64,000 nt of DNA from an uncultured Clostridia bacterium (GTDB lineage Bacteria; Bacillota; Clostridia; UMGS1883), in contig CANRJP010000002.1 in assembly GCA_947630975.1 (NCBI GenBank), forward strand, positions 1,096 through 65,095. Reading direction: 5' to 3'. The stretch's first letter is position 1. The number at the start of each line of letters is the position of its first letter. Under the pieces are notes generated by a model that was given only the letters and a program-made list of their open reading frames with translations, ran no database searches and was not told where the DNA came from. The position numbers and the translations under genes are program-made. Of the stretch, positions 6,445-54,960 are shown one piece after another.

Positions 6445-7158
6445 ATGAAAAAGACTCAGAAAATACTGGTGGTCGACGACGACGCCAATATCTGTGAGCT
6501 GCTCAGGCTCTATCTTAAAAAGGAGGGCTTTGAAACGGTGATCTGCTCCAACGGTGAAAAGGCGCTTGAGGAGTTCGCCGCCGAGCAGCCCGACCTGGCC
6601 ATACTCGACATAATGATGCCGAAGGTTGACGGCATGACGGTTTGCCGCGAGATACGAAAGACCAGCAATATGCCCATCATTATGCTTACAGCCAAGGGCG
6701 AGACCTTCGATAAGGTGCTGGGGCTTGAGCTGGGAGCCGACGACTATATGGTCAAGCCCTTCGAGGGCAAGGAGCTGGTGGCCCGTGTCAAGGCCGTCCT
6801 TCGCCGAAGCGAGGTTCAGAAGGAGGAGAGCGAGGAAAAGATCATACGTTATCCAAATATCGTTATCAACCTCACCAACTACGAGCTCACGCTTGGCGAC
6901 AAGTCCTTTGACATACCGCCGAAGGAGCTGGAGCTGCTGTACTTCCTGGCAAGTCACCCCAACCGGGTGTTCACAAGGGAACAGCTCCTTGAAGATGTGT
7001 GGGGTTTTGACTATTACGGCGACTCGCGGACGGTGGACGTCCACGTAAAGCGGCTCAGGGAAAAGCTGGAGGGCTACGACGACAGTTGGTCCCTCAAGAC
7101 CGTTTGGGGCGTGGGCTACAAGTTCGAGGTCAAGCCGGAGGTGAAGCCTGTTGGGTAA
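6445..7158 (+). CDS. OmpR-family response regulator (CssR-like)
   Basis: Receiver motifs (VVDDD, D at ILDIMMP). C-terminal winged-helix segment (VWGVGYKF). Confidence 0.85.
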   Translation: MKKTQKILVVDDDANICELLRLYLKKEGFETVICSNGEKALEEFAAEQPDLAILDIMMPKVDGMTVCREIRKTSNMPIIMLTAKGETFDKVLGLELGADDYMVKPFEGKELVARVKAVLRRSEVQKEESEEKIIRYPNIVINLTNYELTLGDKSFDIPPKELELLYFLASHPNRVFTREQLLEDVWGFDYYGDSRTVDVHVKRLREKLEGYDDSWSLKTVWGVGYKFEVKPEVKPVG

Positions 7159-8590
7159 AACTCTGTTCACCCGTGTGTTCCTGACGACGGTGCTGGTTAT
7201 TCTTCTGTCCTGCATACTGTCGGCCTCCCTGCTTTACAGTCAGCTTGGCAACTATATAATCAGAACGGAGAGCGAGGAGCTGGAGGACGTGGCGGAGCGT
7301 GTGGCGGAGATAACGGGCCAGTTTATTGACGACAGCTCGGCCCAAAAGTGGCTTTTCAGGCACATCGAGACCCAGAGCTTGAACAACCGCTGCACCATAC
7401 TTGTTATGAATACCAACGCCGAAATAGTTACCATGGCCGGCGGCAGCGAATTCATAGACGTGGACAAACTGGGCAAGGGCCTCATAAGCAAGGCGCTGAA
7501 GGGCGAAAGCACCAGCGGAATAGTCAACGACGAGGCCGGCGTCGCCAAAAACACCTTCGTCTGTACGGAACCGATTTACACCGAATACAACGGCGGTTCC
7601 CTGATACTGGGAGCGGTGGCGGTCTGCAAGCCCATGCCCCAGATACAGCAGGCCCGGAACGAGGTTATGGGGCTGCTGATAACCTCCCAGTCCATCGCGC
7701 TGATGATAGCCTTTCTGTTCAGCTTCCTGCTGGCAAGGAGCATTTCCCGCCCCATAAGCCAGCTCAATTCCGCGGCAAAGGCCGTGGCCTCCGGCGACTT
7801 CACTAAAAAAATAGAGCGCCGCTCCGAGGACGAGATAGGCGAGCTTATATCCAGCTTCAACTACATGACCGGCGCCCTTAAGGAAATAGACGAGGCCAGG
7901 AGCAGCTTCGTCAGCAACGTCGCTCACGAGCTGAGAACCCCGATGACGATAATCAGCGGCTTTGTGGAGGGCATAATCGACGGAACCATAAGCGAGGACG
8001 AGCGGGATAAGTATCTGAATATAGTGCTCAGCGAGTCCCGGCGCCTTGGCCGCCTCGTCAACGATCTTCTCCAGACCAGCCGCCTCGAAAGCGGCACCGC
8101 CAAGCTGGTGATGAAACAGATAGACATCAACGAAATGCTGCGGAAGGGCGTCATAAGCTATGAAAACGCCATCACGGAGAAAAATCTGGACGTGGAGGTG
8201 GAGTTCAAGCGGGAAAACTGCTACGCCGTAGGCGATGAGGACTCCATTTACCGCGTGGTAATGAATCTGCTTGACAACGCAATAAAATACGCTCCCGAGG
8301 GCGGACACATAAAGGTGAAAACCTCCGAGACCGTGCGCAAGGTGGAGGTCAGCATCGAAAACAGCGGCGAGGGCATCAGCGAAAGAGATCTGGCTCATAT
8401 TTGGGAAAGATTTTATAAGACTGACAAGAGCCGCGGCATGGATAAGCGGGGCGTCGGTCTGGGACTTTATCTGGTAAAGACCATAATCAACCAGCACAAC
8501 AACCGCATTTGGGCCGAGAGCAAGGAGGGTGAGTATACGAGGTTTACCTTCACTCTCGATAAGCCCGGCATTACCGGTGTGAAAAACTAA
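7151..8590 (+). CDS. sensor histidine kinase (HAMP-HisKA-HATPase), CssS-like
   Basis: TTG start overlapping the response-regulator stop. H-box VAHELRTPMT. N/G boxes (NLLDNAIKY, GVGLGL). Two TM segments. Confidence 0.85.
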   Translation: MGKTLFTRVFLTTVLVILLSCILSASLLYSQLGNYIIRTESEELEDVAERVAEITGQFIDDSSAQKWLFRHIETQSLNNRCTILVMNTNAEIVTMAGGSEFIDVDKLGKGLISKALKGESTSGIVNDEAGVAKNTFVCTEPIYTEYNGGSLILGAVAVCKPMPQIQQARNEVMGLLITSQSIALMIAFLFSFLLARSISRPISQLNSAAKAVASGDFTKKIERRSEDEIGELISSFNYMTGALKEIDEARSSFVSNVAHELRTPMTIISGFVEGIIDGTISEDERDKYLNIVLSESRRLGRLVNDLLQTSRLESGTAKLVMKQIDINEMLRKGVISYENAITEKNLDVEVEFKRENCYAVGDEDSIYRVVMNLLDNAIKYAPEGGHIKVKTSETVRKVEVSIENSGEGISERDLAHIWERFYKTDKSRGMDKRGVGLGLYLVKTIINQHNNRIWAESKEGEYTRFTFTLDKPGITGVKN

Positions 8591-8895: not shown

Positions 8896-10185
8896 ATGAC
8901 GGATTATAATGAATTTAATTGGAATGAAGAAGAAGGCCATGCGGCGGAGCCTCAGCCTGTCTCTACTCAACTGTACACCGAAAACGTACTTCGGCCAAAG
9001 AACAGTAAGAAGAAAAAGGGCGGCGCGAGGCTCGCGGTCGGAGTTATCTGCGGTGCGCTTGCGGGAAGTATTCTTTCCACAACGCTTGTGCTTGGAGCGT
9101 TCTCCATCAATAATAAGAACGGAAAGGCCACAATGTTCGAGTCAAGCCGCAAGGACGTGATCAACACCACCCAGGTCAGCACCGTTGTCGGCAGCGATAA
9201 GGGCGGGGAATTGACCACCCGTGAAATCGCGAGAATGGTAGGCCCCTCTGTGGTGGGCATTTCCTGCACGGTTCAGTACCAGAACAACTTCTACTTCTTT
9301 GGCGGCGGCACCCAGACGGCGGTGTCCAGCGGCAGCGGCGTAATAATCAGCGACACCGGACACATTGTCACCAACTACCACGTCATTGACGGCGGCAGCG
9401 ATATAAAGGTAAAGTTCAATAACGGCGACGAGTACCCCGCAACTCTTGTGGGCGGCGATGAGGAGTCCGACCTTGCGGTGCTCAAGATCGACCCCGTGGA
9501 CGGTATGACCGTGGCCGTTATGGGCGACAGCGATTTGGTAGAGGTGGGCGACAGGGCCATCGCCATCGGCAATCCCCTTGGCGACGAGCTTTTCGGCACC
9601 ACGACCCAGGGCATTATCAGCGGTAAGAACCGTACCGTCACCGTTGACAACCGTCAGATGACTTTGATTCAGACCGACGCGGCCATTAACAACGGCAACA
9701 GCGGCGGCGCCCTCATCAACGCCTACGGCGAGGTTATCGGCATCAACAGCGTGAAGATTTCCAGCAACATCACTTCCAGCGGCAGCACCGTTGAGGGATT
9801 GGGCTTCGCCATTCCCATCAACGAGGTAAAGAGCGTTGTCAACGACCTCATCAATTACGGCTATGTAACCGGCAAGCCCCTCATCGGTCTGACCGTCCAG
9901 CCCATCACAAATGAGATGGCTCTGTATCTGCCTGTCGACCACGGTCTGTATGTAATGGGCGTTACCGCCGGCAGTGCGGCGGAAAAGGCCGGCATCCAGC
10001 GCGGCGATATAGTTATCTCCTTCGACGGACAGGAGGTACGGACAAATACGGAACTCAACGCCTTGAGAGATAAGCATAAGGCCGGCGACGAGGTTGAAAT
10101 GGTTATCGACCGCAACGGCGAGCGCCTGACTATCAATCTCACTCTTTCGGAGGACAGCTCCGCAAAGACAAAGCAGCAGCAATAG
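8896..10185 (+). CDS. htrA: HtrA/DegP-family serine protease with C-terminal PDZ domain
   Basis: Trypsin-like catalytic triad context (HVI, D, GNSGGAL). PDZ region. N-terminal TM anchor. Confidence 0.85.
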   Translation: MTDYNEFNWNEEEGHAAEPQPVSTQLYTENVLRPKNSKKKKGGARLAVGVICGALAGSILSTTLVLGAFSINNKNGKATMFESSRKDVINTTQVSTVVGSDKGGELTTREIARMVGPSVVGISCTVQYQNNFYFFGGGTQTAVSSGSGVIISDTGHIVTNYHVIDGGSDIKVKFNNGDEYPATLVGGDEESDLAVLKIDPVDGMTVAVMGDSDLVEVGDRAIAIGNPLGDELFGTTTQGIISGKNRTVTVDNRQMTLIQTDAAINNGNSGGALINAYGEVIGINSVKISSNITSSGSTVEGLGFAIPINEVKSVVNDLINYGYVTGKPLIGLTVQPITNEMALYLPVDHGLYVMGVTAGSAAEKAGIQRGDIVISFDGQEVRTNTELNALRDKHKAGDEVEMVIDRNGERLTINLTLSEDSSAKTKQQQ

Positions 10186-10206
10186 TATCACCTGACAAAA
10201 AACATG

Positions 10207-10246
10207 GGGCCGCCCCGGCAGTATGAGGGCGGCCCCGTTTTTTTGC
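10207..10246 (+). terminator. intrinsic terminator GGGGCCGCCCCGG...GGGCGGCCCC + T7
   Basis: Perfect GC-rich hairpin followed by TTTTTTT. Confidence 0.5.
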
Positions 10247-10369
10247 GGTAATACTAAATAATTAGGGAATAGTATTACACGGCGCGGCGCCGCCCCGAGA
10301 CGTGCTTTTTTACGGGTTTTTTGTCTATATTGCACAAAATAATCGCACAAAAATTGGTTAAAAAAACTC

Positions 10370-10379
10370 GGGGGGGGGG
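10370..10379. repeat. G10 homopolymeric tract abutting promoter elements
   Basis: CTCGGGGGGGGGGTATAAT, immediately 5' of the TTGACA(10390)-17-TAAAAT promoter. Confidence 0.8.
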
Positions 10380-10389
10380 TATAATTTCG

Positions 10390-10418
10390 TTGACAAATTT
10401 AATTCAACATGGTAAAAT
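10390..10418 (+). promoter_or_regulatory. putative promoter TTGACA-17-TAAAAT for the low-GC surface-protein gene
   Basis: Consensus -35 with an exact 17-nt spacer, ~150 nt upstream of ATG 10571. Confidence 0.35.
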
Positions 10419-10570
10419 TATAGTGTATATTTTTGTACGCGGCACAGTTCGGCAAGGCGCGTCCCCGGTAAGCCGGAGGTCGACCGAAACCCCGGCGCCG
10501 CCCCGCTGTGACCGGCCGCGCGGCAAAATATACAAAAAATTTTAAATTCTTTTCAAGGAGGAAAAAAATT

Positions 10571-13500
10571 ATGAACGTAAAAAAGATTCTGTCTTTTGCC
10601 GTGGTTCTGGCCATGGTACTGACAGTAGTTCCCACGTTTGGGCTGGTTGCAAGCGCGGCGGATGAACAAGTCATATACGACCTTAACAGCTATGACTATA
10701 CAGGCGAAGTTCTAGTCGATAATTATGGCTTGACAAGCGTGGGGCATGTAAGGCTTAATGAGAAGAACTGGCAAAAAGGCGAGTGGGGTGATTATGGAGA
10801 CGGTAATGGCCAAAGCACATTGACATTCTTTAAAAATACAGCCAAAGGTGCAGGCAATGGTGTAACCGAAGTTGCTACATTTAATAATGCTGCCAATAGC
10901 CTTGACGCCGGTAAGATAGTAATTGATTTTAAATTTGCGTCAAGACAGACTTCTGATGACAACTACATGACGTGGTATTTTAAAGACCTTGACGGCAACA
11001 GTTTTGCTCGAATCTTCTGGGATACAGGAACCGGCAAAGGCAATCCTATTCCGGATATGCCAAATGCCACCGCCAACTTTGGTATTGGTACTACACAGTA
11101 TATAGTTAACTATGGTGAAGCGACTAGCCGTGACCAGGTTCTTGCACTTCGCGATGTGGCCTTCCGCATTGAGGCAGTCAAGGGTGATGACGGTTATACC
11201 GTTACATACTATAAAGACGGTCAAGTGCTTGGTACGTCCGAAAAAGTCGATAATATCAACGGCATTTCAAATATAACCGCTGATATAGGAGAGTATGGTA
11301 CTCAGTGGGGCGGCATGGGCGTTTATGACCTTAAAATTACAGCATCCGATTTTGCAACAGCATCTACGGTAAATTCTGTTAAAAAGGCTCTTGATGAAAT
11401 AGAAGTTGCAGCTCAGTCCAAAGGAGAGAAGATTGAGCTTGCAGATTCCGTAAATGACGGTCACACTGATTTTGATGTAACCTGGACTTCTGACAACGAG
11501 GAATTTGTCGATTCGGAAGGCAATGTTACTGTCAGTGATGTTGTTACCGTTGCGAATCTTACGCCGAGCACCACATTTGATGGAGAAACCGTAAAAGGTA
11601 CTTCTAAGAAAGTCGTTGTATTCCCCGCGTCCCGCGCAGGTAAGGAGTATACTACTGAGTCTGCTATTTATAGTATTGATGGGGAAAACCAGATATCCAA
11701 CGGCAGTTTTGAAGGTGATGAAAACATTAATTTGACAGATTGGAAATCGCATATCAATGAAGATACAAACGGTGCTATATATCCTTTGACAACTGATATT
11801 ACTACCATACCCGACGGTAAATATGCCTATGGTGCAAGATGGGGCGATGGTGTAACTGATAGCGCTGCTAAGAAGGGTGATAAGGATTGTACAATCTGGA
11901 CATTCTTCCCTGTTAGCGCCGGATTGAATTACTTCTCTTTCTATGGAAAATATCTTTGCAACAACTATACAGGTGCTAAAATTTATGCGTATTTCTCTGA
12001 AACCGATACACATGATAGTTTAAAAGAACCTGCTTCGACACTTGATCAGCTTAAAACAATAGAACTTAATACGGAATGGAACAGGTATGAGTACATATTT
12101 GATTCTGAGAAGGATGGATATGTAGTATTTGTTGCTTATAGTCTTAATGAATGGGCCAATGGCAACAGCAACAATCCTGCAAATGCCGGAGCTTGTTTTG
12201 ATAACTTTGAGCTTTATAAAGCCGAGCAGGTTACCGAGGAGCTCACAAAGGTTGAGGAAGTTAAACCCATCAACATAGGTAACGGTACGGATATAAGCAC
12301 ACTACTTCCCAAGACTCTTAAAGGTACATATTCCAAGGGAACCGTTAGGGATGTTGACGTTACATGGAATATACAGGGTCTTGACTTTACAAATAATGCC
12401 GCTGAACCAAAGAAAATTACTGTAACCGGTACAGTAACTGACGGTAGCGTTACTCTTAATCCTAAAGTTGAAGTAACCGTTTATTACTCTTTTGAAATCA
12501 GCGGTGAAAATGCTAACGGCCATGGTCAGTATGATACTAAGAAGGCCATTACTTTCCCTGCTGTGGCCACTGACAAGCTCGCCGTTGAGTACGATGTTGT
12601 CTTTACTAAGTTTGGCGATGCCTGCATTCAGATTTGCGACCCCACAAAGGTAAATGATAACTTTGGTAATGGCTGCCAAGTTGGTCTTGGTGTCGATGCC
12701 GCAGGCGGATTCCGCCCCGTTAACGGTAATGGAACAGGTGGTAGACCTGATGGCGTTACGGACATAACAATCCTTACAATGAAACTTGGTAAGACTTATC
12801 ATGTCACTGAAAATATTGATGTTAAGACTCAAAAGTATTCCGTTTCCGTATATGAACCCAATGGTGAATATGCTGCCAATACTGAATTTGGTTTCCGTGG
12901 CAACGCTGATCAAGTCGGTGTAATGTATCTGTTTGACAATCAGGGTGAGGCTGATTTCGTTGTCTCTAATCTTAAGGGCGTATATGGGACAATCGATGAT
13001 AAGATGGAGACTTGGGATGTTACCGTCAATTATGTGACAGAAAGCGGCGGCAATGCTGTTAATACTGTTAAGAAGAGAGTAATTAAGGGCGGCGACGTTT
13101 CCTTCGACGCTTATGAGTACCGTGAAGGCGCCAAATTCTATAAGGCTGAGCCTCAGACTTATACCGGTGTTACTGCCAACAAAACTGAGGAAGTTGTACT
13201 CGAAAATGACGACTCCAAGATTCTTTCTTCCGCAGATTTCTCTTACAACTTCAGCAAGAACGAGGTAATTTGGGCCGGCGATAATAATTTTAATAGTGCT
13301 GAAAAAACCGGTACGATTTCCATAGGCTGGGGTAATTTCCGCGAGACGATTATGGCTTATAAACTGCCCGAAATTACCGACAAGCAGATGATAAAATCTG
13401 CGGTTCTTAATACCACCGCAGGTTTTGTTTCCGGTACAGAAGGTAAAGGCGAGTATAAGGTTTATGCTATTGATCCCAGCTATGTTGATGTGGCTGGAGG

Positions 13501-14530
13501 CACTATGAAGGGTTTGCCTGGATTTGATGAAGTACGTGAAGATGTAAAGAACGATAAAGGTGATGTAACAGAAGCCAAAGCCCTTCAATGGAGCGCTCGT
13601 CATGCTGTACTTAATGAACTTAAGGCCGTTGAGGTAGCCTCCATTACGGTTAAAACCAATGACACTCCTGCTATAACTCTCGACCTCACTAAGGTTAAGG
13701 ATTTTGCGGTCAAAGATACCCTTGCTCTCCTTATACTTTCAGGAAATCAGGTTTATACATACAGCGCTACAACGGATAAATTCCCGTTCCTGTCTGATGT
13801 TGAAACCATAGACATCCCCGAGATTCCCACTATCGAGGCCAAGCTTAGTTGGAACGGTACGGCTTTCACTATCGACTATGTTCCCACGACCGAGGTAACT
13901 CCCGTTGAGGGCGCGACCTACGCCGTAGAGGTTAGCGATGGCGAGAAGACGCTTGAGGGCGGCGCATACGTACCTTCCAAAGATGCGGGCGTCGGTATAG
14001 TTCCCAATGACACCAACCGCATTTACTCCGCTACTTCCACCGTTACCGTCAGCGATGTAGTATTTAAGGCTGAGACCGCTGTTAAGGCCGGTATCTACGG
14101 TCTTGTTATGGACGCTATCGTAAACAGCACGCTTGACGGCGAGATTAACGCCGAGCAGCTTACCGTTGTGAACGAGGTTCTTAAGAACGGTAATATTCTT
14201 CTTACCGCTGATGAGGAGGGTACGCTTAAGCTCACCGAGGCTGCCGATAAGGTTATGACCCTTGAGGGTGACACTATCACTCTTACCGAAAAGGCCGTTC
14301 AGCTTGGCCTCAGGTTCACCACTATCGGCGTCGGTACGGATGCCGCGACGGCTCCTGTTGCTACAGTAAGTGATGACGGCAAGAGCATTACCCTTCCCGA
14401 TGGCGTGACCACCGCCGAGGCTATGGTTCTTTCCCTTGATTCCGTATACCTTGAGTTTGTTCCCACCGAAATGGCCGACGTGGACGCCGACGGCGCCGAC
14501 GCCGTTCAGGACTTCATCCCTGAACTTTAA
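10571..14530 (+). CDS. large secreted surface/adhesin-like protein with CBM_4_9-like carbohydrate-binding module and Ig-like domains
   Basis: ATG at 10571 after AAGGAGG. Signal peptide MNVKKILSFAVVLAMVLTVVPTFGLVASAAD. A CBM-like module (ISNGSFEG...CFDNFELY). GC (~42%) and codon usage differ clearly from the ~60% GC neighbours. Confidence 0.75.
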   Translation: MNVKKILSFAVVLAMVLTVVPTFGLVASAADEQVIYDLNSYDYTGEVLVDNYGLTSVGHVRLNEKNWQKGEWGDYGDGNGQSTLTFFKNTAKGAGNGVTEVATFNNAANSLDAGKIVIDFKFASRQTSDDNYMTWYFKDLDGNSFARIFWDTGTGKGNPIPDMPNATANFGIGTTQYIVNYGEATSRDQVLALRDVAFRIEAVKGDDGYTVTYYKDGQVLGTSEKVDNINGISNITADIGEYGTQWGGMGVYDLKITASDFATASTVNSVKKALDEIEVAAQSKGEKIELADSVNDGHTDFDVTWTSDNEEFVDSEGNVTVSDVVTVANLTPSTTFDGETVKGTSKKVVVFPASRAGKEYTTESAIYSIDGENQISNGSFEGDENINLTDWKSHINEDTNGAIYPLTTDITTIPDGKYAYGARWGDGVTDSAAKKGDKDCTIWTFFPVSAGLNYFSFYGKYLCNNYTGAKIYAYFSETDTHDSLKEPASTLDQLKTIELNTEWNRYEYIFDSEKDGYVVFVAYSLNEWANGNSNNPANAGACFDNFELYKAEQVTEELTKVEEVKPINIGNGTDISTLLPKTLKGTYSKGTVRDVDVTWNIQGLDFTNNAAEPKKITVTGTVTDGSVTLNPKVEVTVYYSFEISGENANGHGQYDTKKAITFPAVATDKLAVEYDVVFTKFGDACIQICDPTKVNDNFGNGCQVGLGVDAAGGFRPVNGNGTGGRPDGVTDITILTMKLGKTYHVTENIDVKTQKYSVSVYEPNGEYAANTEFGFRGNADQVGVMYLFDNQGEADFVVSNLKGVYGTIDDKMETWDVTVNYVTESGGNAVNTVKKRVIKGGDVSFDAYEYREGAKFYKAEPQTYTGVTANKTEEVVLENDDSKILSSADFSYNFSKNEVIWAGDNNFNSAEKTGTISIGWGNFRETIMAYKLPEITDKQMIKSAVLNTTAGFVSGTEGKGEYKVYAIDPSYVDVAGGTMKGLPGFDEVREDVKNDKGDVTEAKALQWSARHAVLNELKAVEVASITVKTNDTPAITLDLTKVKDFAVKDTLALLILSGNQVYTYSATTDKFPFLSDVETIDIPEIPTIEAKLSWNGTAFTIDYVPTTEVTPVEGATYAVEVSDGEKTLEGGAYVPSKDAGVGIVPNDTNRIYSATSTVTVSDVVFKAETAVKAGIYGLVMDAIVNSTLDGEINAEQLTVVNEVLKNGNILLTADEEGTLKLTEAADKVMTLEGDTITLTEKAVQLGLRFTTIGVGTDAATAPVATVSDDGKSITLPDGVTTAEAMVLSLDSVYLEFVPTEMADVDADGADAVQDFIPEL

Positions 14531-14548: not shown

Positions 14549-14728
14549 ATGAAAAAATTTAACACACCCGAAATCAATTCCGTTGAGCTTAACGCCGTCG
14601 AGGCCGTAATGGATTCCATGCTGGTTAAGTTAGACGCAAACAGCGTCGGAGGTAAGGTTATCAGGTACAGCATTACCGACGACGACCGCGAAGAGAGCGA
14701 TAAGCAGAAATATTGGTCCGGCAAGTAA
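14549..14728 (+). CDS. small ORF (59 aa) translationally coupled behind the surface-protein gene
   Basis: ATG 14549 lies 10 nt after GAAGGAGGA. It ends at TAA 14726-14728. A terminator follows. It falls below the ORF-track length cutoff. Confidence 0.4.
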   Translation: MKKFNTPEINSVELNAVEAVMDSMLVKLDANSVGGKVIRYSITDDDREESDKQKYWSGK

Positions 14729-14746: not shown

Positions 14747-14795
14747 AAAAACAGCCTCCTATGGAAGAAATTCTATAGGAGGTTTTGTTGTGCCG
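14747..14795 (+). terminator. intrinsic terminator (CAGCCTCCTATGG...CTATAGGAGGTTTTGTTGT)
   Basis: Hairpin followed by a T-rich run after the small ORF. Confidence 0.45.
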
Positions 14796-19354: not shown

Positions 19355-19376
19355 TAAGAAAAAAGAGGTGGACCGT

Positions 19377-22300
19377 ATGAAGAAATTTTGCGGCGTTATT
19401 TTGACGCTTTGTCTTATACTTTCCTGCGTTACCGCTTTTGGTGCGGGACTCCGAGTTGAGTGGGGCGGCGCTGTTCTTGCTCCCGGCGAGGTGAGCGTTC
19501 GCCTGTTCGGAGCGGACGACGGACTGAGGGCAATTTTGGCCGTATACGGCCCCGACGGCCTTGCCGCCGTGAAAACCGTCGAGGTGGAGAATGCCAGGGC
19601 CGAGCTTGAACTCCTTTTGGGAGATATTGGCCCGGAAAGTCGGGCGAAGCTCTTTCTTTGGGATTACGAAAAGCTGGAGCCGGTCCGCGGAACGCTTTCC
19701 ACCCTTACGCCCGAGGGCGTAATTGACGGCGCGGCCTACAGCGGGCCGGCGCTAGGTTCGGTGAGCGGCACAGTGAAGAACTCCGACGGAAATCCCCTTG
19801 AAAATGTGGATATAAGCCTTTCCGTCGAAGGGTATACGACCAAAACCGCATCTGACGGAACATACGGTTTTACCAATGTGCCTGTGGGCGACTACACCGT
19901 GACCGCCGCCGCTCCCGCCGACATGGAGCCGGTTGGGGAAAATACTTTGACGGTTACTGTTGAGGAGGACAAGACCGCCGCCGCAGATTTCACGTTTAAG
20001 GCGATAATACATTACGGCTCGGTGAGCGGCACGGTGAAGGATTCCGACGGAACTCCCCTTGAAAATGTGGAAATAAGCCTTTCCGCCGAAGGATATACGA
20101 CCAAAACCGCCTCCGACGGCACATACGGCTTTACCGGTGTGCCTGTGGGCGACTACACCGTGACCGCCGCCGCTCCCGCCGATATGGAGCCGGTGGGGGA
20201 AAATACTTTGACGGTTACGGTGGAGGAGGACAAGACCGCCGCCGCAGATTTCACGTTTAAGGCGACAGTACATTACGGCTCGGTGAGCGGCACAGTAAAG
20301 GATTCCGACGGAACGCCTCTTGAAAATGTGGAGGTGAGCCTTTCCGCCGAAGGATATACGACCAAAACCGCCTCCGACGGCACATACGGCTTTACCGGTG
20401 TGCCTGTGGGCGACTACACCGTGACCGCCGCCGCTCCCGCCGATATGGAGCCGGTGGGGGAAAATACTTTGACGGTTACGGTGGAGGAGGACAAGACCGC
20501 CGCCGCAGATTTCACGTTTAAGGCGACAGTACATTACGGCTCGGTGAGCGGCACGGTAAAGGATTCCGACGGAATTCCTTTTGAAAATGTGGAAATAAGC
20601 CTTTCCGCCGAAGGGTATACGACCAAAACCGCATCTGACGGCACATACGGCTTTGATAATGTGCCTGTGGGCGAATACACCGTGACCGCCGCGGCTCCCG
20701 CCGACATGGAGCCGGTGGGAGAAGCCTCCGTCAATGTTACCGTGAAGGAAAATCAGACTTCCACGGCGGACTTTGTTTTCGGCCCCAAGGAGCCGGAGCC
20801 TGAAAAGTGGTACAGCGACAACCAAAAAGTAAATAACGGCTCCAGCATCGGCTATCACAGCTTCGAGGCTCTCGCCGGAGATTACGAGGTTGAGTTTGAG
20901 CTGACCGTTGTCAAAAAAGGCAATAACGCCGTAATGCTCCATGACAGCTCCAAAAATCCTTTGGACTACGAAGGATCTTCTGTAATACTTCTGTTTAACG
21001 GTAATTATTTTTCCGTCAGAAGCGGGGACGGATCGGGAGGTTATACGGCCGAAGCGGTAAATCTCTGTGCCGTAAAGGAAAATGAAACTTATAAAATAAA
21101 GATTTGCGGCGATGCGGCTATGAACACCTATACCGTTTCCGTCACCGGTAAGGACGGCCAAACGCATACCAGCGATATTATGCGTGCCTGGACAAACGGA
21201 GATAAACTGGACTCTCTGGCCTTAATCAGCAACGATCACAATACGGTGGTGAACGGAGACGAATGTTCCGATTATTTGTTTTATGTAACCGGCTGCACGG
21301 CTGAACATATAATTGGCGACCCTGTATATGACGGCTTTGCCGGTCGGTATTTCGCCATAAAGGCCGGAGGAAAGTACGTTCGCGGCAACAACGGCAAGCT
21401 CTCCGCCGACTGGAACAGTGTAAGCGACGACAGCGCCAAGTTCCTGCCCCGCGATATGGGCGACGGCAGCTTTGCTTTCATGTGCCTTTCCTCCAAGAGG
21501 AGGATAACCGCGTCGGACAGCGGGCAGCTTTCCAGCGCGGACTATGACTGTAACGGCGACGGTCAGCACTGGCTCCTTGAGAAGGGCCCGAGTTACAGCG
21601 ACGAGGCTCCCGCCTACTATCTCAAGAGCCTTAAAAATCAAAAATACATAGGCTTAGTAGACGGATTTTTGTCCGCCGTTGACGAGGCCGATAAGGTGGA
21701 GCTCATCTTTGAGCCGCTGAACGACGACAGCCCGCTCTATCTCATTTCCGCATCTCCGGCATATGCGCGTTTGAGCAAAAAGCAGAGGGAACGCATCGAG
21801 ATGATTTACGAAACCGTGGCAGGCGACGTGTTCGACCGCTACAGCAACGATATAATCAGCGCGGAGTGGACGCCCCGGCTCCGAATAGACAATATCTATA
21901 AAGAGGCAAAGGATACTGATGAGGAGCTTTACAAACGGCTCGAGAAATTCCTTAAGGGCGACGATGCCTACCTTATAACCGACGGCGCCATAGCCAACAG
22001 CTATTCCGTTACCACGCCGCTCCCCGGCACCGGCGGCGAGACCTGCGGGCTGGACGGCGGCGTCGCCGGCAGTTATGACTTCTGGCGGGGTACCAAGCTT
22101 CAAGGGACTAAGTATAAGCTCACGGTATACACCGCCGCCGGCAGTGTACAGCAAACCGTTGACCTCTACGTCCAGAACGACGGTACGGCCCGAACCAACG
22201 AACAAAGATTTGTGGAGATTTTCAATAAAATACCCTATATTTACAGAAAGAACATCACCAGCGTCAAGATAAGGAGCGACACCGCCAACAGCTACAACTG

Positions 22301-22673
22301 CGGCTCAAATGATCTGTACATCCGCCTGAATTGGTCCCCCGGCGCGGCTCAGATGCTCTGCACCGTTTGTCACGAGCTGACCCACAGCAATTCCGCCGTC
22401 AACGGCAATTGGGCCGAGGGAGACGGCTGGAGAAACGCCATGAACGATGATATGATATATGTCAGCCCCTACGGAAAATCCAACGCCACCGAGGATTTTG
22501 CCGAGTTCGGACGTCTGTACTTCATTTCCTACGGAAACCGTGACCGCCAGCGGGCGATACAGCTCCTGTTCCCCAACCGTTATGCCTCGTATTACCGCAT
22601 GAGAAATAACAAAAATATGGGCGGCTTCGAGCTTTGGGAGGATACGGAGTATCCGGAATATAGTAATGAATAA
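19377..22673 (+). CDS. large secreted protein: 4x carboxypeptidase-regulatory-like repeats, ricin-B-like (QxW) segment, C-terminal HExxH putative metallopeptidase domain
   Basis: Signal peptide MKKFCGVILTLCLILSCVTAFGAG. Four 85-aa repeats (SGTVKDSDGTPLENV...DGTYGF...GDYTVT). DYDCNGDGQHW motif. CTVCHELTHS motif. Confidence 0.75.
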   Translation: MKKFCGVILTLCLILSCVTAFGAGLRVEWGGAVLAPGEVSVRLFGADDGLRAILAVYGPDGLAAVKTVEVENARAELELLLGDIGPESRAKLFLWDYEKLEPVRGTLSTLTPEGVIDGAAYSGPALGSVSGTVKNSDGNPLENVDISLSVEGYTTKTASDGTYGFTNVPVGDYTVTAAAPADMEPVGENTLTVTVEEDKTAAADFTFKAIIHYGSVSGTVKDSDGTPLENVEISLSAEGYTTKTASDGTYGFTGVPVGDYTVTAAAPADMEPVGENTLTVTVEEDKTAAADFTFKATVHYGSVSGTVKDSDGTPLENVEVSLSAEGYTTKTASDGTYGFTGVPVGDYTVTAAAPADMEPVGENTLTVTVEEDKTAAADFTFKATVHYGSVSGTVKDSDGIPFENVEISLSAEGYTTKTASDGTYGFDNVPVGEYTVTAAAPADMEPVGEASVNVTVKENQTSTADFVFGPKEPEPEKWYSDNQKVNNGSSIGYHSFEALAGDYEVEFELTVVKKGNNAVMLHDSSKNPLDYEGSSVILLFNGNYFSVRSGDGSGGYTAEAVNLCAVKENETYKIKICGDAAMNTYTVSVTGKDGQTHTSDIMRAWTNGDKLDSLALISNDHNTVVNGDECSDYLFYVTGCTAEHIIGDPVYDGFAGRYFAIKAGGKYVRGNNGKLSADWNSVSDDSAKFLPRDMGDGSFAFMCLSSKRRITASDSGQLSSADYDCNGDGQHWLLEKGPSYSDEAPAYYLKSLKNQKYIGLVDGFLSAVDEADKVELIFEPLNDDSPLYLISASPAYARLSKKQRERIEMIYETVAGDVFDRYSNDIISAEWTPRLRIDNIYKEAKDTDEELYKRLEKFLKGDDAYLITDGAIANSYSVTTPLPGTGGETCGLDGGVAGSYDFWRGTKLQGTKYKLTVYTAAGSVQQTVDLYVQNDGTARTNEQRFVEIFNKIPYIYRKNITSVKIRSDTANSYNCGSNDLYIRLNWSPGAAQMLCTVCHELTHSNSAVNGNWAEGDGWRNAMNDDMIYVSPYGKSNATEDFAEFGRLYFISYGNRDRQRAIQLLFPNRYASYYRMRNNKNMGGFELWEDTEYPEYSNE
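19745..20780 (+). repeat. four near-identical 255-bp in-frame tandem repeats inside the CDS
   Basis: Stretches of >100 bp are identical between units (for example around 20160 and 20400). Confidence 0.85.
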
Positions 22674-40808: not shown

Positions 40809-40844
40809 ATATGTGTATTATATGTGTATTATATGTGAAACTGA

Positions 40845-41060
40845 ATAGGCTGCGGGTGCCGGGCGTTCGCCAAGGCGAAAAGGGCCCGGTGAAAAGGGAA
40901 ACAGGTGAAAGTCCTGTACGAACTCGTCACTGTAATTACGGAGCCGGGAAGGAATATGTCACTGACCCTTCGGGGTTGGGAAGGCCCTTCCAAGCGATGA
41001 TGTATAAGCCAGGAGACCTGCCCGCCGCCGGTACGCGGAGCTTCGGCTCCAATGCCACGA
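40845..41060 (+). ncRNA. cobalamin (AdoCbl) riboswitch
   Basis: GGTGCCGGG...AAGGGAA.CAGGTGAAA.TCC...GTCACTG core and B12-box AAGCCAGGAGACCTGCC at 41007-41023. Sits 5' of a B12 transport/biosynthesis operon. Confidence 0.75.
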
Positions 41061-41084
41061 GTAATTGGCAGTACGGTTAAACGG

Positions 41085-41142
41085 ACACTTGTGTGCGTCT
41101 GTTTTTGGTGCGCCTTGCTTTGCGGCAACGGCGCATTTTTTG
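41085..41142 (+). terminator. riboswitch expression-platform terminator (GCGCC...GGCGC + T6; preceded by second T-run)
   Basis: Stem followed by TTTTTT just before ATG 41158. Confidence 0.4.
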
Positions 41143-41157
41143 TTTGGAAGTGACGGC

Positions 41158-41577
41158 ATGAACGAAATAAAAGACGGAACATATACCGTCGACGTAGATC
41201 TTAGCGGCGGCAGCGGACGGGCAAAGATCGAAAGCCCGACGGAGCTTACTGTAAAGGACGGAGAAATCAAAGCCAAAATTTGTTGGGACAGCCCCAGCTA
41301 TGATTATATGGAAATCGGGGGCAGGGAGTATTATCCGGTCAATAAAGAGGGCAATTCGGTGTTTGTCATTGACGCGGAGCTGGACAGGGAGCTTTCGGTC
41401 AAGGCCGAGACCGTTGCCATGAGCAGGCCCCATATGATAGATTACACCTTGTATTTCGACTCGGCTTCACTGCGCGGGAGCGGCGGCGCGGCGTATGCCG
41501 TATGCGGCGCCGCGCTTGCGGCGATCGCCGCTGCCGCAGTTATAGTTTTAAGGATAAGGAAAAGGCATGAAAAATAA
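41158..41577 (+). CDS. hypothetical C-terminally TM-anchored protein (paralog A), first gene after B12 riboswitch
   Basis: ATG after the terminator. The 5' extension in the ORF track overlaps the riboswitch. Single C-terminal TM helix plus basic tail RIRKRHEK. Paralogous to 45380-45922. Confidence 0.55.
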   Translation: MNEIKDGTYTVDVDLSGGSGRAKIESPTELTVKDGEIKAKICWDSPSYDYMEIGGREYYPVNKEGNSVFVIDAELDRELSVKAETVAMSRPHMIDYTLYFDSASLRGSGGAAYAVCGAALAAIAAAAVIVLRIRKRHEK

Positions 41578-42715
41578 GCTCGTCATAATTTTTTTGATAA
41601 TTTTAATAATTTTGTCAGGCTGCGGAAAAGAGCCGATGGCTCCGGCTTTGCCGGACAAGGCGGAGGAATTGCCCGGCCTGACCTTCGCCGAACGGGAGGA
41701 ACTCCTCTACGCCGACCAATTCGCCATCGACCGCTATGAGGACGGGTACTCCCTGATACATATCGCGGACGGAGAAAAATATCTTGTGGCGCCGGAGAAC
41801 GGAAAAATCCCCGACGGCCTCGCCCCGGAGATAAAAGTTGTCAGGCGGCCTGTAAGCAACGTTTACATGGCGGCCACGGCGGCGATGGATCTGTTCGACG
41901 CTCTTAACAGAGTGGACGCGGTGCGCTTTTCTTCGGTCAAGGCCGACGGCTGGTACATAGACGGGGCGAGAGAGGCGATGGAGCGGGGAGAAATGCTGTA
42001 TGCCGGAAAATACAGTCTGCCGGATTACGAGCTGCTTCTCTCGGCGGGGTGCGGCCTTTCCGTACAGTCCACCATGATATATCACGCGCCGGAGGTAAGG
42101 GAAAAATTGGAGGAGCTGGGTATAACCGTGTTTGTCGACCGCTCCAGCTACGAAAGCCACCCTCTCGGCCGCTGTGAGTGGGTGAAGCTTTACGGAGAAC
42201 TGTTGGGGGAGAGCGCCTTGGCCGAAAAGCTGTTTGACGAACAAAAGTCGTATCTTGAAAGCCTCGGCCCCGCCGACGGCGGAAAGACAGCCGTCTGCTT
42301 TTACATTAGCGGCGGCGGACGGATAGTGACCCGCAGGGCCGGGGATTACGTTTCGAAAATGATTGAGCTGGCCGGAGGCAGAAATATCCTTTCCGAGCCA
42401 GGTGGGGACGGCGCTCTTTCCACCGTGACCATGGAGCCGGAGGAGTTTTATTCAAAGGCGAAGGAAGCGGACGTGATTATTTATGACGGAGCGATTACCG
42501 GCGAGATCGGCAGCGTTGACGAGCTCATATCAAAAAATTCCCTGCTGGCGGACTTCAAAGCGGTAAAAAACGGCGATGTCTGGTGTACCGGCAAGAGCTT
42601 TTTTCAGGGGACGATGAGCGTCGGCGAGACAATATCCGAACTCAATATGATTTTTACCGGCGGCTCCGGGGAGTTGTCCCATTTTTCTAAATTAAAAGGC
42701 GGCGATGCCCCTTGA
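41567..42715 (+). CDS. btuF: ABC transporter substrate-binding lipoprotein (BtuF-like, cobalamin/siderophore family)
   Basis: Lipobox ILSGC. Class III SBP architecture. Position in the riboswitch-controlled operon. Confidence 0.75.
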   Translation: MKNKLVIIFLIILIILSGCGKEPMAPALPDKAEELPGLTFAEREELLYADQFAIDRYEDGYSLIHIADGEKYLVAPENGKIPDGLAPEIKVVRRPVSNVYMAATAAMDLFDALNRVDAVRFSSVKADGWYIDGAREAMERGEMLYAGKYSLPDYELLLSAGCGLSVQSTMIYHAPEVREKLEELGITVFVDRSSYESHPLGRCEWVKLYGELLGESALAEKLFDEQKSYLESLGPADGGKTAVCFYISGGGRIVTRRAGDYVSKMIELAGGRNILSEPGGDGALSTVTMEPEEFYSKAKEADVIIYDGAITGEIGSVDELISKNSLLADFKAVKNGDVWCTGKSFFQGTMSVGETISELNMIFTGGSGELSHFSKLKGGDAP

Positions 42716-43713
42716 GACGTTTAAAATTCAAGACAGCGGCTGTATTCGCCGGGCTGGCCGCTCTGTCTCTGGTTCTTTTGGGGGCCAATCTCTTTATCGG
42801 CAGCGTCAGGCTTTCCGCCGTCGAGACGGTCGGCGGCCTTTTCTCCGGCGACGCGATAATATGGAAGATAAGGCTCCCAAGAGCTGTTGCGGCCATTCTT
42901 TTGGGCGGAGCGCTGGCCCTGTCGGGATACCTGTTGCAGACCTTTTTCAACAATCCGATCGCCGGCCCCTTTGTGCTTGGAGTCAGCTCGGGCGCCAAGC
43001 TGGCCGTGGCTCTGACAATGATAGCCGCCGCCGGAGCCGGACGGGCGTTGAACTCCTTTTCCACGGTGGCCGCAGCCTTTGCCGGATCCATGCTCTCGCT
43101 GGGATTTATTCTGCTTGTTTCGCGAAAGGTGGGACGGGTGAGCCTGCTTGTGGTCTGCGGCGTTATGATAGGCTACATCTGCTCGGCGGCGACGGATTTC
43201 GCGGTGACATTCGCCGGAGACGCGGACATAGTCAATCTGCGGGACTGGGCCATGGGCAGCTTTTCCGGCACGGATATGGACAGTGTGGCGGTCATGGCGG
43301 CGATAGTTCCGGCGGCGTCGGTTTGCGCGTTTTTGCTCTCCAAGCCGATAGGCGCTTACCGCTTGGGCGAGGGCTATGCGAGAAGCTCGGGCGTGAGGGT
43401 GGGGCTGCTCAGAGCGGCGCTCATAATCCTGTCGGGACTGCTGGCGGCCTGCGTCACCGCGTTTGCCGGGCCGGTGTCCTTTGTGGGCATAGCCGCGCCC
43501 CATATCGTGAGGCTGCTGTTGGGCACATCGAAGCCCACGGTGCTGATACCCGCCTGCTTTTTGGGAGGAGGGATATTCTGTTCGGCCTGCGACCTTGTGG
43601 CCCGCACGGCTTTTGCTCCCACCGAGCTCGGCATCAGTACGGTGACGGCGATTTTCGGTGCGCCGGTGGTAATTGGGATAATGCTTCGGCGGAAGAGGGG
43701 TGAAGCCGTGTGA
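42712..43713 (+). CDS. btuC: FecCD-family ABC permease (BtuC-like)
   Basis: ~9-10 TM segments and FecCD family signatures. Confidence 0.8.
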   Translation: MRRLKFKTAAVFAGLAALSLVLLGANLFIGSVRLSAVETVGGLFSGDAIIWKIRLPRAVAAILLGGALALSGYLLQTFFNNPIAGPFVLGVSSGAKLAVALTMIAAAGAGRALNSFSTVAAAFAGSMLSLGFILLVSRKVGRVSLLVVCGVMIGYICSAATDFAVTFAGDADIVNLRDWAMGSFSGTDMDSVAVMAAIVPAASVCAFLLSKPIGAYRLGEGYARSSGVRVGLLRAALIILSGLLAACVTAFAGPVSFVGIAAPHIVRLLLGTSKPTVLIPACFLGGGIFCSACDLVARTAFAPTELGISTVTAIFGAPVVIGIMLRRKRGEAV

Positions 43714-44477
43714 ACGATGTCCTCGTTTCGGTTGAAAACCTTTCGGCGGGCTACGGTAAGCCCGTGGCGGAAGATGTGGATTTTGCCGTCAGGGGCGGAG
43801 AAGTGCTCGTCCTCATCGGCCCGAACGGAGGAGGAAAGTCCACCCTATTGAGGACGCTTGCCGGCGAGCTTAAAAAGCTTGGCGGCAAAGTGCTCCTTTG
43901 CGGAATCGACACGGACAGGCTTTCCCCAAAAGAAAGGGCGAAAAGGCTTTCCGTCCTGCTGACCGCCCGGCCCCGCACCGACAGAATGACCTGCCGGGAG
44001 GTGGTCGAGACGGGCCGTTATCCCTACACCGGCCGTTTCGGCGTACTTTCCCGAGACGATAAAAACGCGGTGAAAAGGGCGCTGGAGCTGGCGGGAGTGT
44101 CCGAGCTGTCGGATTGTGACTTCTCGCGGATAAGCGACGGCCAGCGTCAGCGGGTGATGCTGGCGCGGGCCGTATGTCAGGAGCCGGAGGTCATGATACT
44201 CGACGAGCCCACGTCTTATCTCGACATCCACCACAAGCTGATATTTCTCGACAGCCTTCAAACGCTGGCGAAAGAAAAGTCCGTCGCCGTTATTTTGTCG
44301 ATGCACGAGCTTGACCTTGCGGAAAAAATCGCCGACCGGGCCGTATGTATAAAGGATGGCCATGTTTTTCGGTCGGGAACGCCGGACGAAATTTTTAAGG
44401 AGGAGGTCCTTCGGGAGCTTTTTGACCTCCCGGATGAACTTTATAAAAAATATTTTGTGAAAGGAAAATCATTATGA
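43710..44477 (+). CDS. btuD: ABC transporter ATP-binding protein (BtuD/FepC-like)
   Basis: Walker A GPNGGGKST, signature SDGQRQRVMLARAV, Walker B ILDEPTS. Confidence 0.85.
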   Translation: MNDVLVSVENLSAGYGKPVAEDVDFAVRGGEVLVLIGPNGGGKSTLLRTLAGELKKLGGKVLLCGIDTDRLSPKERAKRLSVLLTARPRTDRMTCREVVETGRYPYTGRFGVLSRDDKNAVKRALELAGVSELSDCDFSRISDGQRQRVMLARAVCQEPEVMILDEPTSYLDIHHKLIFLDSLQTLAKEKSVAVILSMHELDLAEKIADRAVCIKDGHVFRSGTPDEIFKEEVLRELFDLPDELYKKYFVKGKSL

Positions 44478-45376
44478 AAAAGAGAACCGCATTGGCCGCG
44501 GCCCTTGCCGCGATTCTGACCCTTGGCGGCTGCGCGTCAACAAAGACCGCCGGAGATGTTGAAAAGGAGCCCGAGACCAAAACCGCCGACAAACCGGTCA
44601 TTCTCGTGGTAAGCTTCGGCACCAGCTATAACGACAGCCGTGACAGGACGATTGGGGCCATCGAAAACGCCATCGCCGCCGCCAATCCCGATTACGAGGT
44701 GCGCAGAGCCTTTACAAGCCAGATAATAATCGACAAGCTTAAGGAGCGGGACGGCCTTGAGATAGACAATGTGGAAGAGGCCCTTGACCGCCTTGTTGCC
44801 GACGGCGTAAAAGAGCTTGTCGTCCAGCCGACCCACGTCATGAGCGGCTTTGAGTATGACGATTTGGCCGCCGCCGTTGAGGAATACAGGCCCGATTTTG
44901 ACAAGGTCGCGATGGGTAAGCCTTTGCTTACCTCCGACGGGGATTATACGAGAGTGGCGTCCGCGCTCATGGAAGCCACCGAGGAGTATGATACGGAGGA
45001 TACGGCCATTGTGTTCATGGGTCACGGCACGGAGCACGAATCCAACGGTGTCTACACCAAGCTTCAGGAAACCTTCAGTCAGGCGGAGGCGTACAATTAT
45101 TTTGTCGGCACCGTCGAGGCTACTCCCGGCCTTGAGGACGTTATGTCGAACGTTATTCTGGGCAATTATCCCAAGGTGGTATTGGAGCCCCTGATGGTCG
45201 TCGCCGGCGACCACGCCAACAACGATATGGCGGGCGACGGCGAAGATTCGTGGAAGTCCGCCATGGAGTCGGCGGGCCTCGAGGTGGAGTGTCTGCTGCG
45301 CGGCATGGGCGAGATCCCCGCCATACAGCAGATATATGTTGACCACGTTGCCGACGCGATAGCCTCGATGGAGTAA
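44474..45376 (+). CDS. cbiK: CbiK-type sirohydrochlorin cobaltochelatase homolog with lipoprotein signal peptide (extracytoplasmic)
   Basis: Close motif-by-motif similarity to Salmonella CbiK (VVSFGTSY, FMGHG, MVVAGDHANNDMAGDGEDSWK). N-terminal lipobox LTLGGC. Confidence 0.8.
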   Translation: MKKRTALAAALAAILTLGGCASTKTAGDVEKEPETKTADKPVILVVSFGTSYNDSRDRTIGAIENAIAAANPDYEVRRAFTSQIIIDKLKERDGLEIDNVEEALDRLVADGVKELVVQPTHVMSGFEYDDLAAAVEEYRPDFDKVAMGKPLLTSDGDYTRVASALMEATEEYDTEDTAIVFMGHGTEHESNGVYTKLQETFSQAEAYNYFVGTVEATPGLEDVMSNVILGNYPKVVLEPLMVVAGDHANNDMAGDGEDSWKSAMESAGLEVECLLRGMGEIPAIQQIYVDHVADAIASME

Positions 45377-45379
45377 AAG

Positions 45380-45922
45380 ATGAAAAAAATATCAGCGTTT
45401 ATCTTTTTACTTTTCATTTTTGCGCCGTCGGTCTTTGCCGCCGATGAAGCCGCCTTATACGGCAAAGACATAAAGGACGGCGTATATCAAATAGAGGTGG
45501 AGTCCAGTTCCTCGATGTTCCGCGTCGTCGGCTGTGAGCTGACCGTAAAAGAGGGCGAAATGACCGCCCTCATGACCCTGAGCGGCACCGGATATGAAAA
45601 GCTGTTCATGGGCACCGGCGAGGAGGCCGCCTCCGCTCGGGACGGCGAGTACATATATTTCGAGGAGGACAGCCAAGGCAAATATACTTACAGCGTTCCG
45701 GTAGAAGCGCTGAACACGGATATTTCCTGCGCGGCATTCAGCATACGGCGTCAAAAATGGTACGACCGCACGCTTGTATTCAAAGCCGACACTCTGCCCG
45801 AGGGAGCCGTCGGCGCCTCCAAACCTGTGCCGCTGCCTCTGACGGTAACGGCGGTGCTTGTTATTGCCGCGTCCGCTTTTGTTCTGATTATGGAAAGGCG
45901 GCGGAGCCGGAATGAAAACTGA
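45380..45922 (+). CDS. hypothetical secreted, C-terminally TM-anchored protein (paralog B)
   Basis: Signal peptide and C-terminal TM plus basic tail ERRRSRNEN. Shares IKDG.Y...V.....ELTVK[DE]GE and downstream blocks with 41158-41577. Confidence 0.55.
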   Translation: MKKISAFIFLLFIFAPSVFAADEAALYGKDIKDGVYQIEVESSSSMFRVVGCELTVKEGEMTALMTLSGTGYEKLFMGTGEEAASARDGEYIYFEEDSQGKYTYSVPVEALNTDISCAAFSIRRQKWYDRTLVFKADTLPEGAVGASKPVPLPLTVTAVLVIAASAFVLIMERRRSRNEN

Positions 45923-46553: not shown

Positions 46554-46557
46554 CGCC

Positions 46558-54442: not shown

Positions 54443-54960
54443 CTCTTATTACCGGCGGAAGTAAGTGCGGCAAATCCCGCATGGCCGAGACCCTGGCCGT
54501 GTCTTGCGGCCTGCCGCTTTACTATATCGCCACTATGGAGCCCTCGGGGCGGGAGGCGGAGATCCTGATAGGCCGCCATCGAAGGCAGCGCGAGGGCAAG
54601 GGCTTTGTCACGGTCGAGCGATATACCGATATTGGCGGCGTTTTCTTGCCCAGAGGCTGCTGTGCACTGTTGGAGGACGCGGGCAACCTTTTGGCAAACG
54701 AGATGTTTTCGGCCAAGGCTCCCGCCCCCGCGGAAAAGATAATTGCCGGAATAGAAAAGCTGAAAAAAACGGCCGCCCGACTCATAGTTGTGACAAATGA
54801 GGTTGGCCGCGACGGCCTGAACTATTCCGCCGAAACGAGGGAATATATCAGGCTGATGGGGGAGATAAACCGCCGCGCCGCCGAAATGGCGGACATGGTT
54901 ATCGAAGCCGTTTTCGGCATACCCGTGACGCTGAAAGGAGAACGCCCGGAATGCTTATAA
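54436..54960 (+). CDS. cobU: adenosylcobinamide kinase / adenosylcobinamide-phosphate guanylyltransferase
   Basis: MLTLITGGSKCGKS P-loop. 174 aa. Confidence 0.85.
   Translation: MLTLITGGSKCGKSRMAETLAVSCGLPLYYIATMEPSGREAEILIGRHRRQREGKGFVTVERYTDIGGVFLPRGCCALLEDAGNLLANEMFSAKAPAPAEKIIAGIEKLKKTAARLIVVTNEVGRDGLNYSAETREYIRLMGEINRRAAEMADMVIEAVFGIPVTLKGERPECL

Follow-up and report, generated by a model that had tools for sequence, protein, structure and literature searches.

A run of ten G at 10370-10379, which would span roughly -55 to -46 if transcription starts where predicted, is the sole G or C run longer than seven nucleotides in the 64-kb window (by which we mean the whole stretch of DNA analysed). 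It stands in a conserved expression cassette ahead of a gene for a large secreted protein, and as a candidate slipped-strand repeat it makes a credible slippage "dimmer switch" in the genome of an uncultured, gut-type Clostridia, of a kind already known in pathogens. By analogy with the T-tract of Helicobacter pylori sabA, the tract would work as a slipped-strand rheostat in the zone of the UP element, a reading to which we give about an even chance of being right. A first reading, made from the sequence only, had placed the G tract at these positions, with a TATAAT string abutting it and a promoter 10 nt further on, and every one of these coordinates was confirmed on the sequence. Its proposal that the tract is a candidate for phase variation holds in part: the tract is real, non-random and conserved, and its place is just ahead of the promoter of a secreted-protein gene of foreign composition, but the only length variant is a single doubtful G11 and a graded effect is likelier than a clean ON/OFF switch.

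In the mechanism that we favor, G10 would be a selected simple-sequence repeat within the cassette, in which slippage of the polymerase in vivo would lead to the gain or loss of one G. Since the tract has an A/T tract (and perhaps regulator sites) upstream of it and an AT-rich linker and the -35 hexamer downstream, each change of 1 bp would rotate the upstream elements by ~34 degrees, and shift them, with respect to the RNA polymerase bound at the main promoter, P1. Transcription of the secreted protein and of its small partner ORF would be raised or lowered as a consequence, in a manner that is heritable yet reversible. The outcome would be a graded rheostat and not a strict ON/OFF switch: a clean ON/OFF effect is less likely because the tract sits upstream of the -35 of a near-consensus promoter and outside its spacer.

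The G10 tract and its recurrence

Runs of G become rare very quickly with length in the window. Our homopolymer census counted 135 G4, 28 G5 and a single G6, and then the lone G10, far above what the decay of roughly 5-fold per added base would predict; C runs have a maximum length of 7. The claim that nothing comparable appears elsewhere in the window is thus borne out. Also, no G or C run of ten or more (and only two of nine) was present in 0.9 Mb of unrelated Firmicutes loci, a background set fetched with a genome-collection scan on a generic promoter pattern. The census of the window and this run-free DNA lead us to dismiss a chance origin of the tract, and its rarity in both sets speaks for slippage.

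The trivial explanation, which we find barely credible, would be that the run arose during sequencing or assembly (for example as two-colour poly-G) or that it is a chance run devoid of function. Poly-G is indeed a known artefact of Illumina data and two related contigs end beside the tract, but the run is internal in the window and in locus L004, with good sequence on both sides, the same length recurs at the homologous site when different samples are assembled independently, and the chance expectation is negligible.

An uninterrupted G10 is also found at the homologous site ahead of two diverged genes of the same family from other metagenomes, at 297-306 in L004 (encoding P0005) and at 17-26 in L001 (encoding P0002), where it covers -59 to -50 relative to the predicted transcription start. 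The respective layouts are TTTC-G10-TACAATTTCG-TTGACA-17-TGnTAAAAT and TTTC-G10-TTATAGCTTATTTG-TTGACA-17-TGnTAAAAT, and the C and the T that flank the tract are kept in the window and in both loci. G10 is 100% conserved among sequences in which the flanks of the tract are merely 65-80% identical and the spacer of the promoter itself 65% identical. At a divergence of 25-35% per site, the probability that ten neutral sites survive in both comparisons is roughly 0.06 x 0.01, and it is because they would so seldom survive that we consider the uninterrupted run to be under selection. An uninterrupted run at a homologous position in three diverged loci is what one would expect of a selected repeat and not of neutral sequence, and we count it in favor of slippage. 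In the window and in both of these loci, the run also exceeds the mutability threshold that is usual for uninterrupted repeats (G/C runs of ~8 or more), and a fourth assembly carries G11.

The same constancy can be read in another way. The tract could be a fixed-length cis element, in which a structural or protein-binding C-G10-T module is held at exactly ten by purifying selection, for instance as a stiff stretch of G/C by which the A/T tracts upstream are positioned or insulated, or as the site of a regulator. We hold this to be possible, if rather doubtful. It would fit the presence of exactly G10 in three independent diverged loci with the flanking C and T conserved, the doubtful quality of the sole length variant, and the conservation of the whole cassette, leader included, as a unit. 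Yet a run of ten G is prone to slippage, and a requirement for a fixed length would favor an interrupted sequence; moreover, the position of the tract relative to the -35 is shifted by 4 nt in L001. To our knowledge there is neither a fixed poly-G promoter element nor a G10-binding regulator in Firmicutes, and our literature search for either found none, leaving the fixed element with no known precedent.

Possible length variation of the tract

Length can be compared in a single case, that of one locus assembled from two samples as L154 (which is the L001 contig) and as L155. Of 8056 aligned positions 8055 agree, and the tract supplies the one that does not, with G10 in L154 and G11 in L155 (positions 9-19). 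That their sole difference falls in the tract argues for slippage, since a lone 1-nt difference in 8,056 bases would be the signature of a hypermutable repeat, although it is a single hint. A fair alternative is that the G11 may be a post-homopolymer read error, because it lies 8 nt from the contig end, the terminal bases of L155 include two adjacent mismatches, and coverage is about 5x. The fit of this only variant with a read error weighs against slippage, and so does the finding of exactly G10 in 3 of the 4 assemblies, a wide spread of lengths being absent here while contingency loci usually show one among strains. Length heterogeneity across assemblies, the behavior predicted for a phase-variable tract, may be represented by the G10 versus G11 of one and the same locus, but with the G11 at a mismatch-bearing contig end and G10 in all the others.

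A dominant length is not in itself at odds with switching. In Treponema pallidum, a modal tract length makes up ~80% of a population that still varies (PMC7864442), and a clonal isolate with 81% G9 and minority variants would look fixed in consensus assemblies (PMC7864442). A consensus of G10 is hence compatible with switching, yet it is no demonstration of it. The ends of the contigs also bear on the question. The contig L001/L154 starts 16 nt, and L155 8 nt, upstream of the tract. Breaks at this place would follow from disagreement among reads, a further point for slippage. Contigs stop here in three assemblies, which suggests that the region is hard to assemble, be it for heterogeneity of the tract, for the drop in quality after a homopolymer or for a repeat boundary.

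Mechanisms that would act through the tract in other ways were set aside. A coding frameshift switch was rejected, as both L004 and L001 have stop codons within the ORF that spans the tract (10321-10545); a search for frame variants of this 74-aa ORF among representative proteins gave no relatives. A G-quadruplex was rejected by reasoning, the tract being a single G10 run without loops.

The expression cassette and known switches

The tract belongs to a conserved cassette of ~260 bp that starts near 10312 and contains, in this order, an A/T tract, C-G10, an AT-rich linker, a near-consensus sigma-A promoter, a structured leader, an RBS and a signal peptide. Its elements, like those of the two-gene unit that follows, are on the + strand. 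The identity between the window and L004 is 42% over 10200-10311 and 78% from 10312, and homology continues through the leader and the signal peptide. The conserved upstream part (10312-10369, delimited by the alignment at the point where homology with L004 starts) includes GCACAA repeats (TTGCACAAAATAATCGCACAA) and an A7 tract (10360-10366) that is followed by CTC, directly 5' of G10. In L004 this block is 1 nt longer than in the window, with G10 unchanged. An A/T tract lies immediately 5' of C-G10 in 3 of 3 loci (window, L004 and L001), and the order of A/T tract, C, G10, AT-rich linker and -35 is the same in all of them. Further upstream on the + strand, the intrinsic terminator of the htrA-like gene (10198-10244; inverted repeat I3, 18 nt at 89%, then T7) would insulate the cassette from read-through.

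Between the tract and the -35, the AT-rich linker TATAATTTCG (10380-10389) is made of TATAAT (10380-10385) and TTCG. Its counterpart in L004, TACAATTTCG, is identical at 9 of 10 positions and keeps the 10-nt distance between tract and -35 found in the window, while that of L001, TTATAGCTTATTTG, has 14 nt. The TATAAT that abuts the tract is not conserved, being TACAAT in L004 and TTATAG in L001, and the lack of conservation of this -10-like hexamer in L001 counts against slippage. P1 itself (10390-10418, TTGACA-17-TGnTAAAAT), as defined by promoter scan and alignment, has its TTGACA at 10390-10395 and, after 17 nt of spacer, its TAAAAT at 10413-10418, which gives 11/12 matches to consensus with a TGn present. 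Hexamers, 17-nt spacing and TGn are identical in the alignment of the window, L004 and L001. The start of transcription is predicted near 10422-10425, and the RBS, AAGGAGG (10555-10561), conserved in L004 and L001, lies 9 nt before the ATG, which is at 10571 and not at 10572.

The genome-collection scan mentioned above used the pattern TTGACA-N17-TAAAAT-N4-8-TGTATATTT. It returned at least 119 unrelated strong promoters, the pattern being too generic for any use other than as background. Among the matches listed, TGTATATTT located 4-8 nt past a TAAAAT -10 hexamer is common at strong Firmicutes promoters (loci L005-L123), and a near-identical promoter, TTGACAATAAATTTTCAGAGATTTAAAATTAACATGTATATTTTACAAATTTTTCGAATG, occurs in many Bacillaceae genomes.

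The zone from -55 to -46 is ordinarily where alpha C-terminal domains or activators act. A classical UP element (A/T-rich, about -40 to -60) is absent from P1, the distal half of that zone being occupied by G10, and A/T-rich sequence near it is confined to the 10-nt linker plus the A7 tract further upstream. Two observations temper the rheostat here. Strict helical phasing is not conserved, given that the linker has 10 or 14 nt at the same tract length and that the upstream block of L004 has one additional nt; and P1 may depend little on upstream elements, because it is near consensus with an extended -10. In a sub-variant of the rheostat, the tract would also serve as the spacer of a weak overlapping promoter, either TTAAAA-16-TATAAT, with 10/12 matches in the promoter scan, or a sigma-B-like GTTAAA-14-GGGTAT across the tract, noticed by inspection only, and the occupancy of that promoter, with its start of transcription predicted near 10392, would compete with the main one. 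We consider this sub-variant secondary because the hexamers of the overlapping promoter are degraded in L004 and especially in L001.

The precedent on which the rheostat is modeled is sabA, where the length of a T-tract re-phases UP-like A-boxes to give a graded, periodic output (PMC4081817). The conserved order of A/T tract, C-G10, AT linker and -35 resembles the sabA arrangement (PMC4081817), and this likeness argues for slippage. In both cases the homopolymer is in non-transcribed DNA upstream of the -35 of a promoter that is of sigma-70 type and has TGnTAAAAT as its extended -10 (PMC4081817), the flanks are A/T-rich and UP-like, the product is secreted or at the surface, and the proposed effect is exerted through the axial alignment of upstream elements with RNA polymerase. 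Unlike in sabA, the repeat is here made of G and not of T, so that it is itself no UP-like or bending element; it lies 10-14 nt from the -35, while the sabA tract is directly adjacent; and its host is a Gram-positive-type Clostridia MAG instead of an epsilonproteobacterium. Also, the variation in length of the sabA tract and its effect on expression are documented, whereas both are proposed for the tract described here.

Poly-G itself has precedents. At tprE/G/J/L and tp0126 of T. pallidum, genes for secreted or outer-membrane proteins, promoter poly-G tracts of 8 or more vary in length and alter transcription (PMC7864442), another argument for slippage at G10, and as in the tpr genes a promoter poly-G is common here to paralogues of a family of signal-peptide-bearing proteins (PMC7864442). 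The position differs, for the treponemal tract overlaps the -10/TSS (tprL) or lies between -35 and -10 (tp0126) and not upstream of the -35, and so does the evidence, which was obtained there by fragment analysis for variability and by GFP reporters for the effect (PMC7864442) and here by sequence comparison. PMC7864442 describes, in Neisseria meningitidis, poly-G in the spacer of porA and poly-C at the -35 of opc, surface-protein promoters in which slippage of a homopolymer changes transcription as it would here. The present tract is nevertheless outside the -35/-10 spacer of P1, and a mechanism like that described there for porA (PMC7864442) could apply only to the weak, poorly conserved TTAAAA-16-TATAAT.

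Downstream of P1, a GC-rich structured 5' leader (10424-10543; defined by folds and by inverted repeat I1) is conserved in a region that is otherwise AT-rich, with equivalents at 352-476 of L004 and 72-185 of L001. The predicted 5' end of the transcript (10424-10443) pairs with 10515-10539, a segment about 95 nt downstream, and this closing stem encloses in the window the hairpin CCCCGG-UAAG-CCGGAGG and GGUCGACCGAAACCCC; the elements conserved across loci are the hairpin, as CCCCGG-NNNG-CCGGAGG, and GGUCGA(C/A)CGA. The same closing stem was obtained in three independent folds (window, L004 and L001; z-scores of -2.4, -2.2 and -0.6) as well as in the consensus fold. Compared with Rfam, the leader gave no match at the gathering score and only noise (E about 0.3 or higher). 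A conserved 5'-terminal structure seems all that the thin covariation of three sequences allows us to claim, and the leader is perhaps a stabiliser of the mRNA or an undescribed cis-regulatory RNA. A metagenome scan with the leader motif yielded 25 matches, all 25 by chance in GC-rich coding DNA; scans of viral contigs and a search for related loci were empty or gave chance matches, and blastn against plasmids was empty.

The leader takes part in the last alternative that we weighed, an inverton. An imperfect inverted repeat (I5, 15/17 complementary, with 189 nt between its arms at 10317-10333 and 10523-10539) surrounds the tract, P1 and the greater part of the leader, and could represent operator sites or a weak inverton signature. 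A recombinase would flip the segment between the arms, and the G tract would be incidental. The left arm does coincide with the start of the cassette homology, and inversion is a documented mechanism of phase variation in Clostridia (PMC11868660): cwpV, flgB, cmrRST and pdcB of Clostridioides difficile are switched by site-specific inversion between inverted repeats (PMC11868660). The candidate shares with these switches the Clostridia host, the type of gene (surface or signalling) and a location in the promoter or leader, but its salient feature is a simple-sequence repeat, and the evidence for an inverton is weak. Indeed, the homologous repeat in L004 is weak (about 11/15), the arms are A/T-rich and of low complexity, the right one is already accounted for by the closing stem of the leader, whose 3' half it forms, the promoter faces the gene in 4 of 4 assemblies (a small sample), no recombinase gene lies within ~10 kb (where response regulator, histidine kinase, HtrA, MarR and ABC transporter genes are found), and contigs break at the tract and not at the repeats. 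We therefore regard inversion as quite improbable. A motif related to the inverted repeat, TTTTGT(A/C)TA, recurs at the transcript start.

The secreted-protein gene and its surroundings

The gene behind the cassette (10571-14530, by ORF, domain search and composition) encodes a secreted modular protein of 1319 aa. By inspection, its N terminus is a signal peptide of the Sec type (MNVKKILSFAVVLAMVLTVVPTFGLVASA/A); the protein carries one Big_4 domain in its variable middle and ends with a conserved C-terminal region of ~250 aa that terminates in DFIPEL. A model of the C-terminal 260 aa (pLDDT 66) gave generic FN3/Ig-like matches only, and the protein has no relative in PDB or NCBIfam. The product had been called a surface protein, and its signal peptide, Big_4 and FN3/Ig-like domains and variable modular family are those of a secreted or surface product, but we recognised no wall or membrane anchor in it. 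Secretion of the product and its membership of a variable, modular family are a further point in favor of slippage at the G tract.

The family is small, with 9 matches among 5.8 billion clusters. Across its members P0002-P0009, the signal peptide hardly varies and the C-terminal ~250 aa ending in DFIPEL are conserved, with central domains that bear no relation to one another. In P0003 the final 60 residues are exactly those of the window protein and the signal peptide is near-identical, around a different centre, a pattern that suggests cassette-like recombination of passenger domains. L002/L003 (P0004, of the subgroup with an MRIKK signal peptide) have an unrelated upstream region without the tract. 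Exact-protein look-ups with the proteins of the window and with homologues found only at NCBI showed nothing on record, and the look-up of P0134 led to a 559-nt contig only.

A small ORF of 53-62 aa with its own RBS lies directly 3' of every family gene examined. In the window it has 59 aa (14549-14728, 18 nt past the stop of the large gene), and copies are present in L001 (3673-3852), L004 (4795-4977) and L002 (6538-6708). Six database matches are 56-100% identical to the window copy, which belongs to no Pfam or NCBIfam family. A terminator hairpin, recognised by inspection (14755-14789), closes the two-gene unit.

This unit is a foreigner among its neighbors. Upstream lie genes for an OmpR-type response regulator (6445-7158), a histidine kinase (7151-8590) and an HtrA-like protease (8896-10185) whose best named relatives, at 63% identity, are from "Oscillospiraceae bacterium"; downstream of the 59-aa ORF and its terminator come MarR and then two ABC exporter genes. 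The gene had been described as low in GC, and indeed it has a GC of 0.448 and a GC3 of 0.42, against GC3 values of 0.70-0.75 in all six neighbors. In the relative L150, with an HtrA 76% identical, a LytTR gene takes the place of the family gene at this site. Conversely, L152, from another sample, carries a 99.7% identical copy of the gene, in a contig without the promoter, whose identity with the window ends in blastn at 14798, just past the terminator; from 3637 onward L152 has a downstream neighbor wholly different from that of the window from 14798 onward. The two-gene unit thus occupies different genomic contexts, since the neighbor in L152 differs and L150 lacks the gene after htrA. Foreign composition (GC3), absence in L150 and the differing neighbor in L152 together give good support to the view that the gene was horizontally acquired. 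Another contig, L149, stops 26 nt past the stop of htrA.

Taken with the family pattern, these data allow a broader reading, in which G10 would be one layer of a portable expression cassette with a structured leader that is recombined onto passenger domains, joining stochastic control by repeat length with control by the leader RNA. We think this unlikely, though worth stating. It concerns, in uncultured Clostridia of the gut, the assembly of A/T tract, G10, consensus promoter, ~120-nt leader and signal peptide, together with a small partner ORF of its own. The vlp genes of Mycoplasma hyorhinis offer a comparable design, that of a surface-protein family in which a conserved 5' block (promoter, leader and signal peptide) containing a homopolymer is joined to variable mature regions. 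There, the homopolymer is a poly-A tract inside the -35/-10 spacer and the lipoprotein genes are clustered, whereas here the poly-G is upstream of the -35 and the window holds a single family gene. If the portable cassette were real, it would give a large commensal clade, in which only inversion switches are known, its first described phasome element of the simple-sequence-repeat type.

It has been asked in a review whether the finding of repeat-based phase variation mainly in pathogens reflects biology or database bias (PMC11868660), and our literature search for repeat-based switching in Oscillospiraceae, Ruminococcaceae or Lachnospiraceae found none. If the slippage rheostat is correct, repeat-based bet-hedging would extend to an abundant commensal clade, ahead of a mobile family of modular secreted proteins, and tract length in reads would become a simple marker of the expression states of a surface protein in metagenomes. 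Additional regulatory and functional leads are offered by the leader and the small ORF, both conserved, which add some novelty along with the cassette.

Two other loci of the window deserve mention. A second large protein of cell-surface type, with four CarboxypepD_reg domains and SpaA/SdrD_B-like folds, is encoded at 19368-22673 by a gene of native composition (GC3 0.64) that has no repeat tract upstream. A cobalamin riboswitch (122 bits) at 40837-41039 precedes ~16 ORFs on the same strand (41065-55724), presumably an operon for cobalamin biosynthesis or transport.
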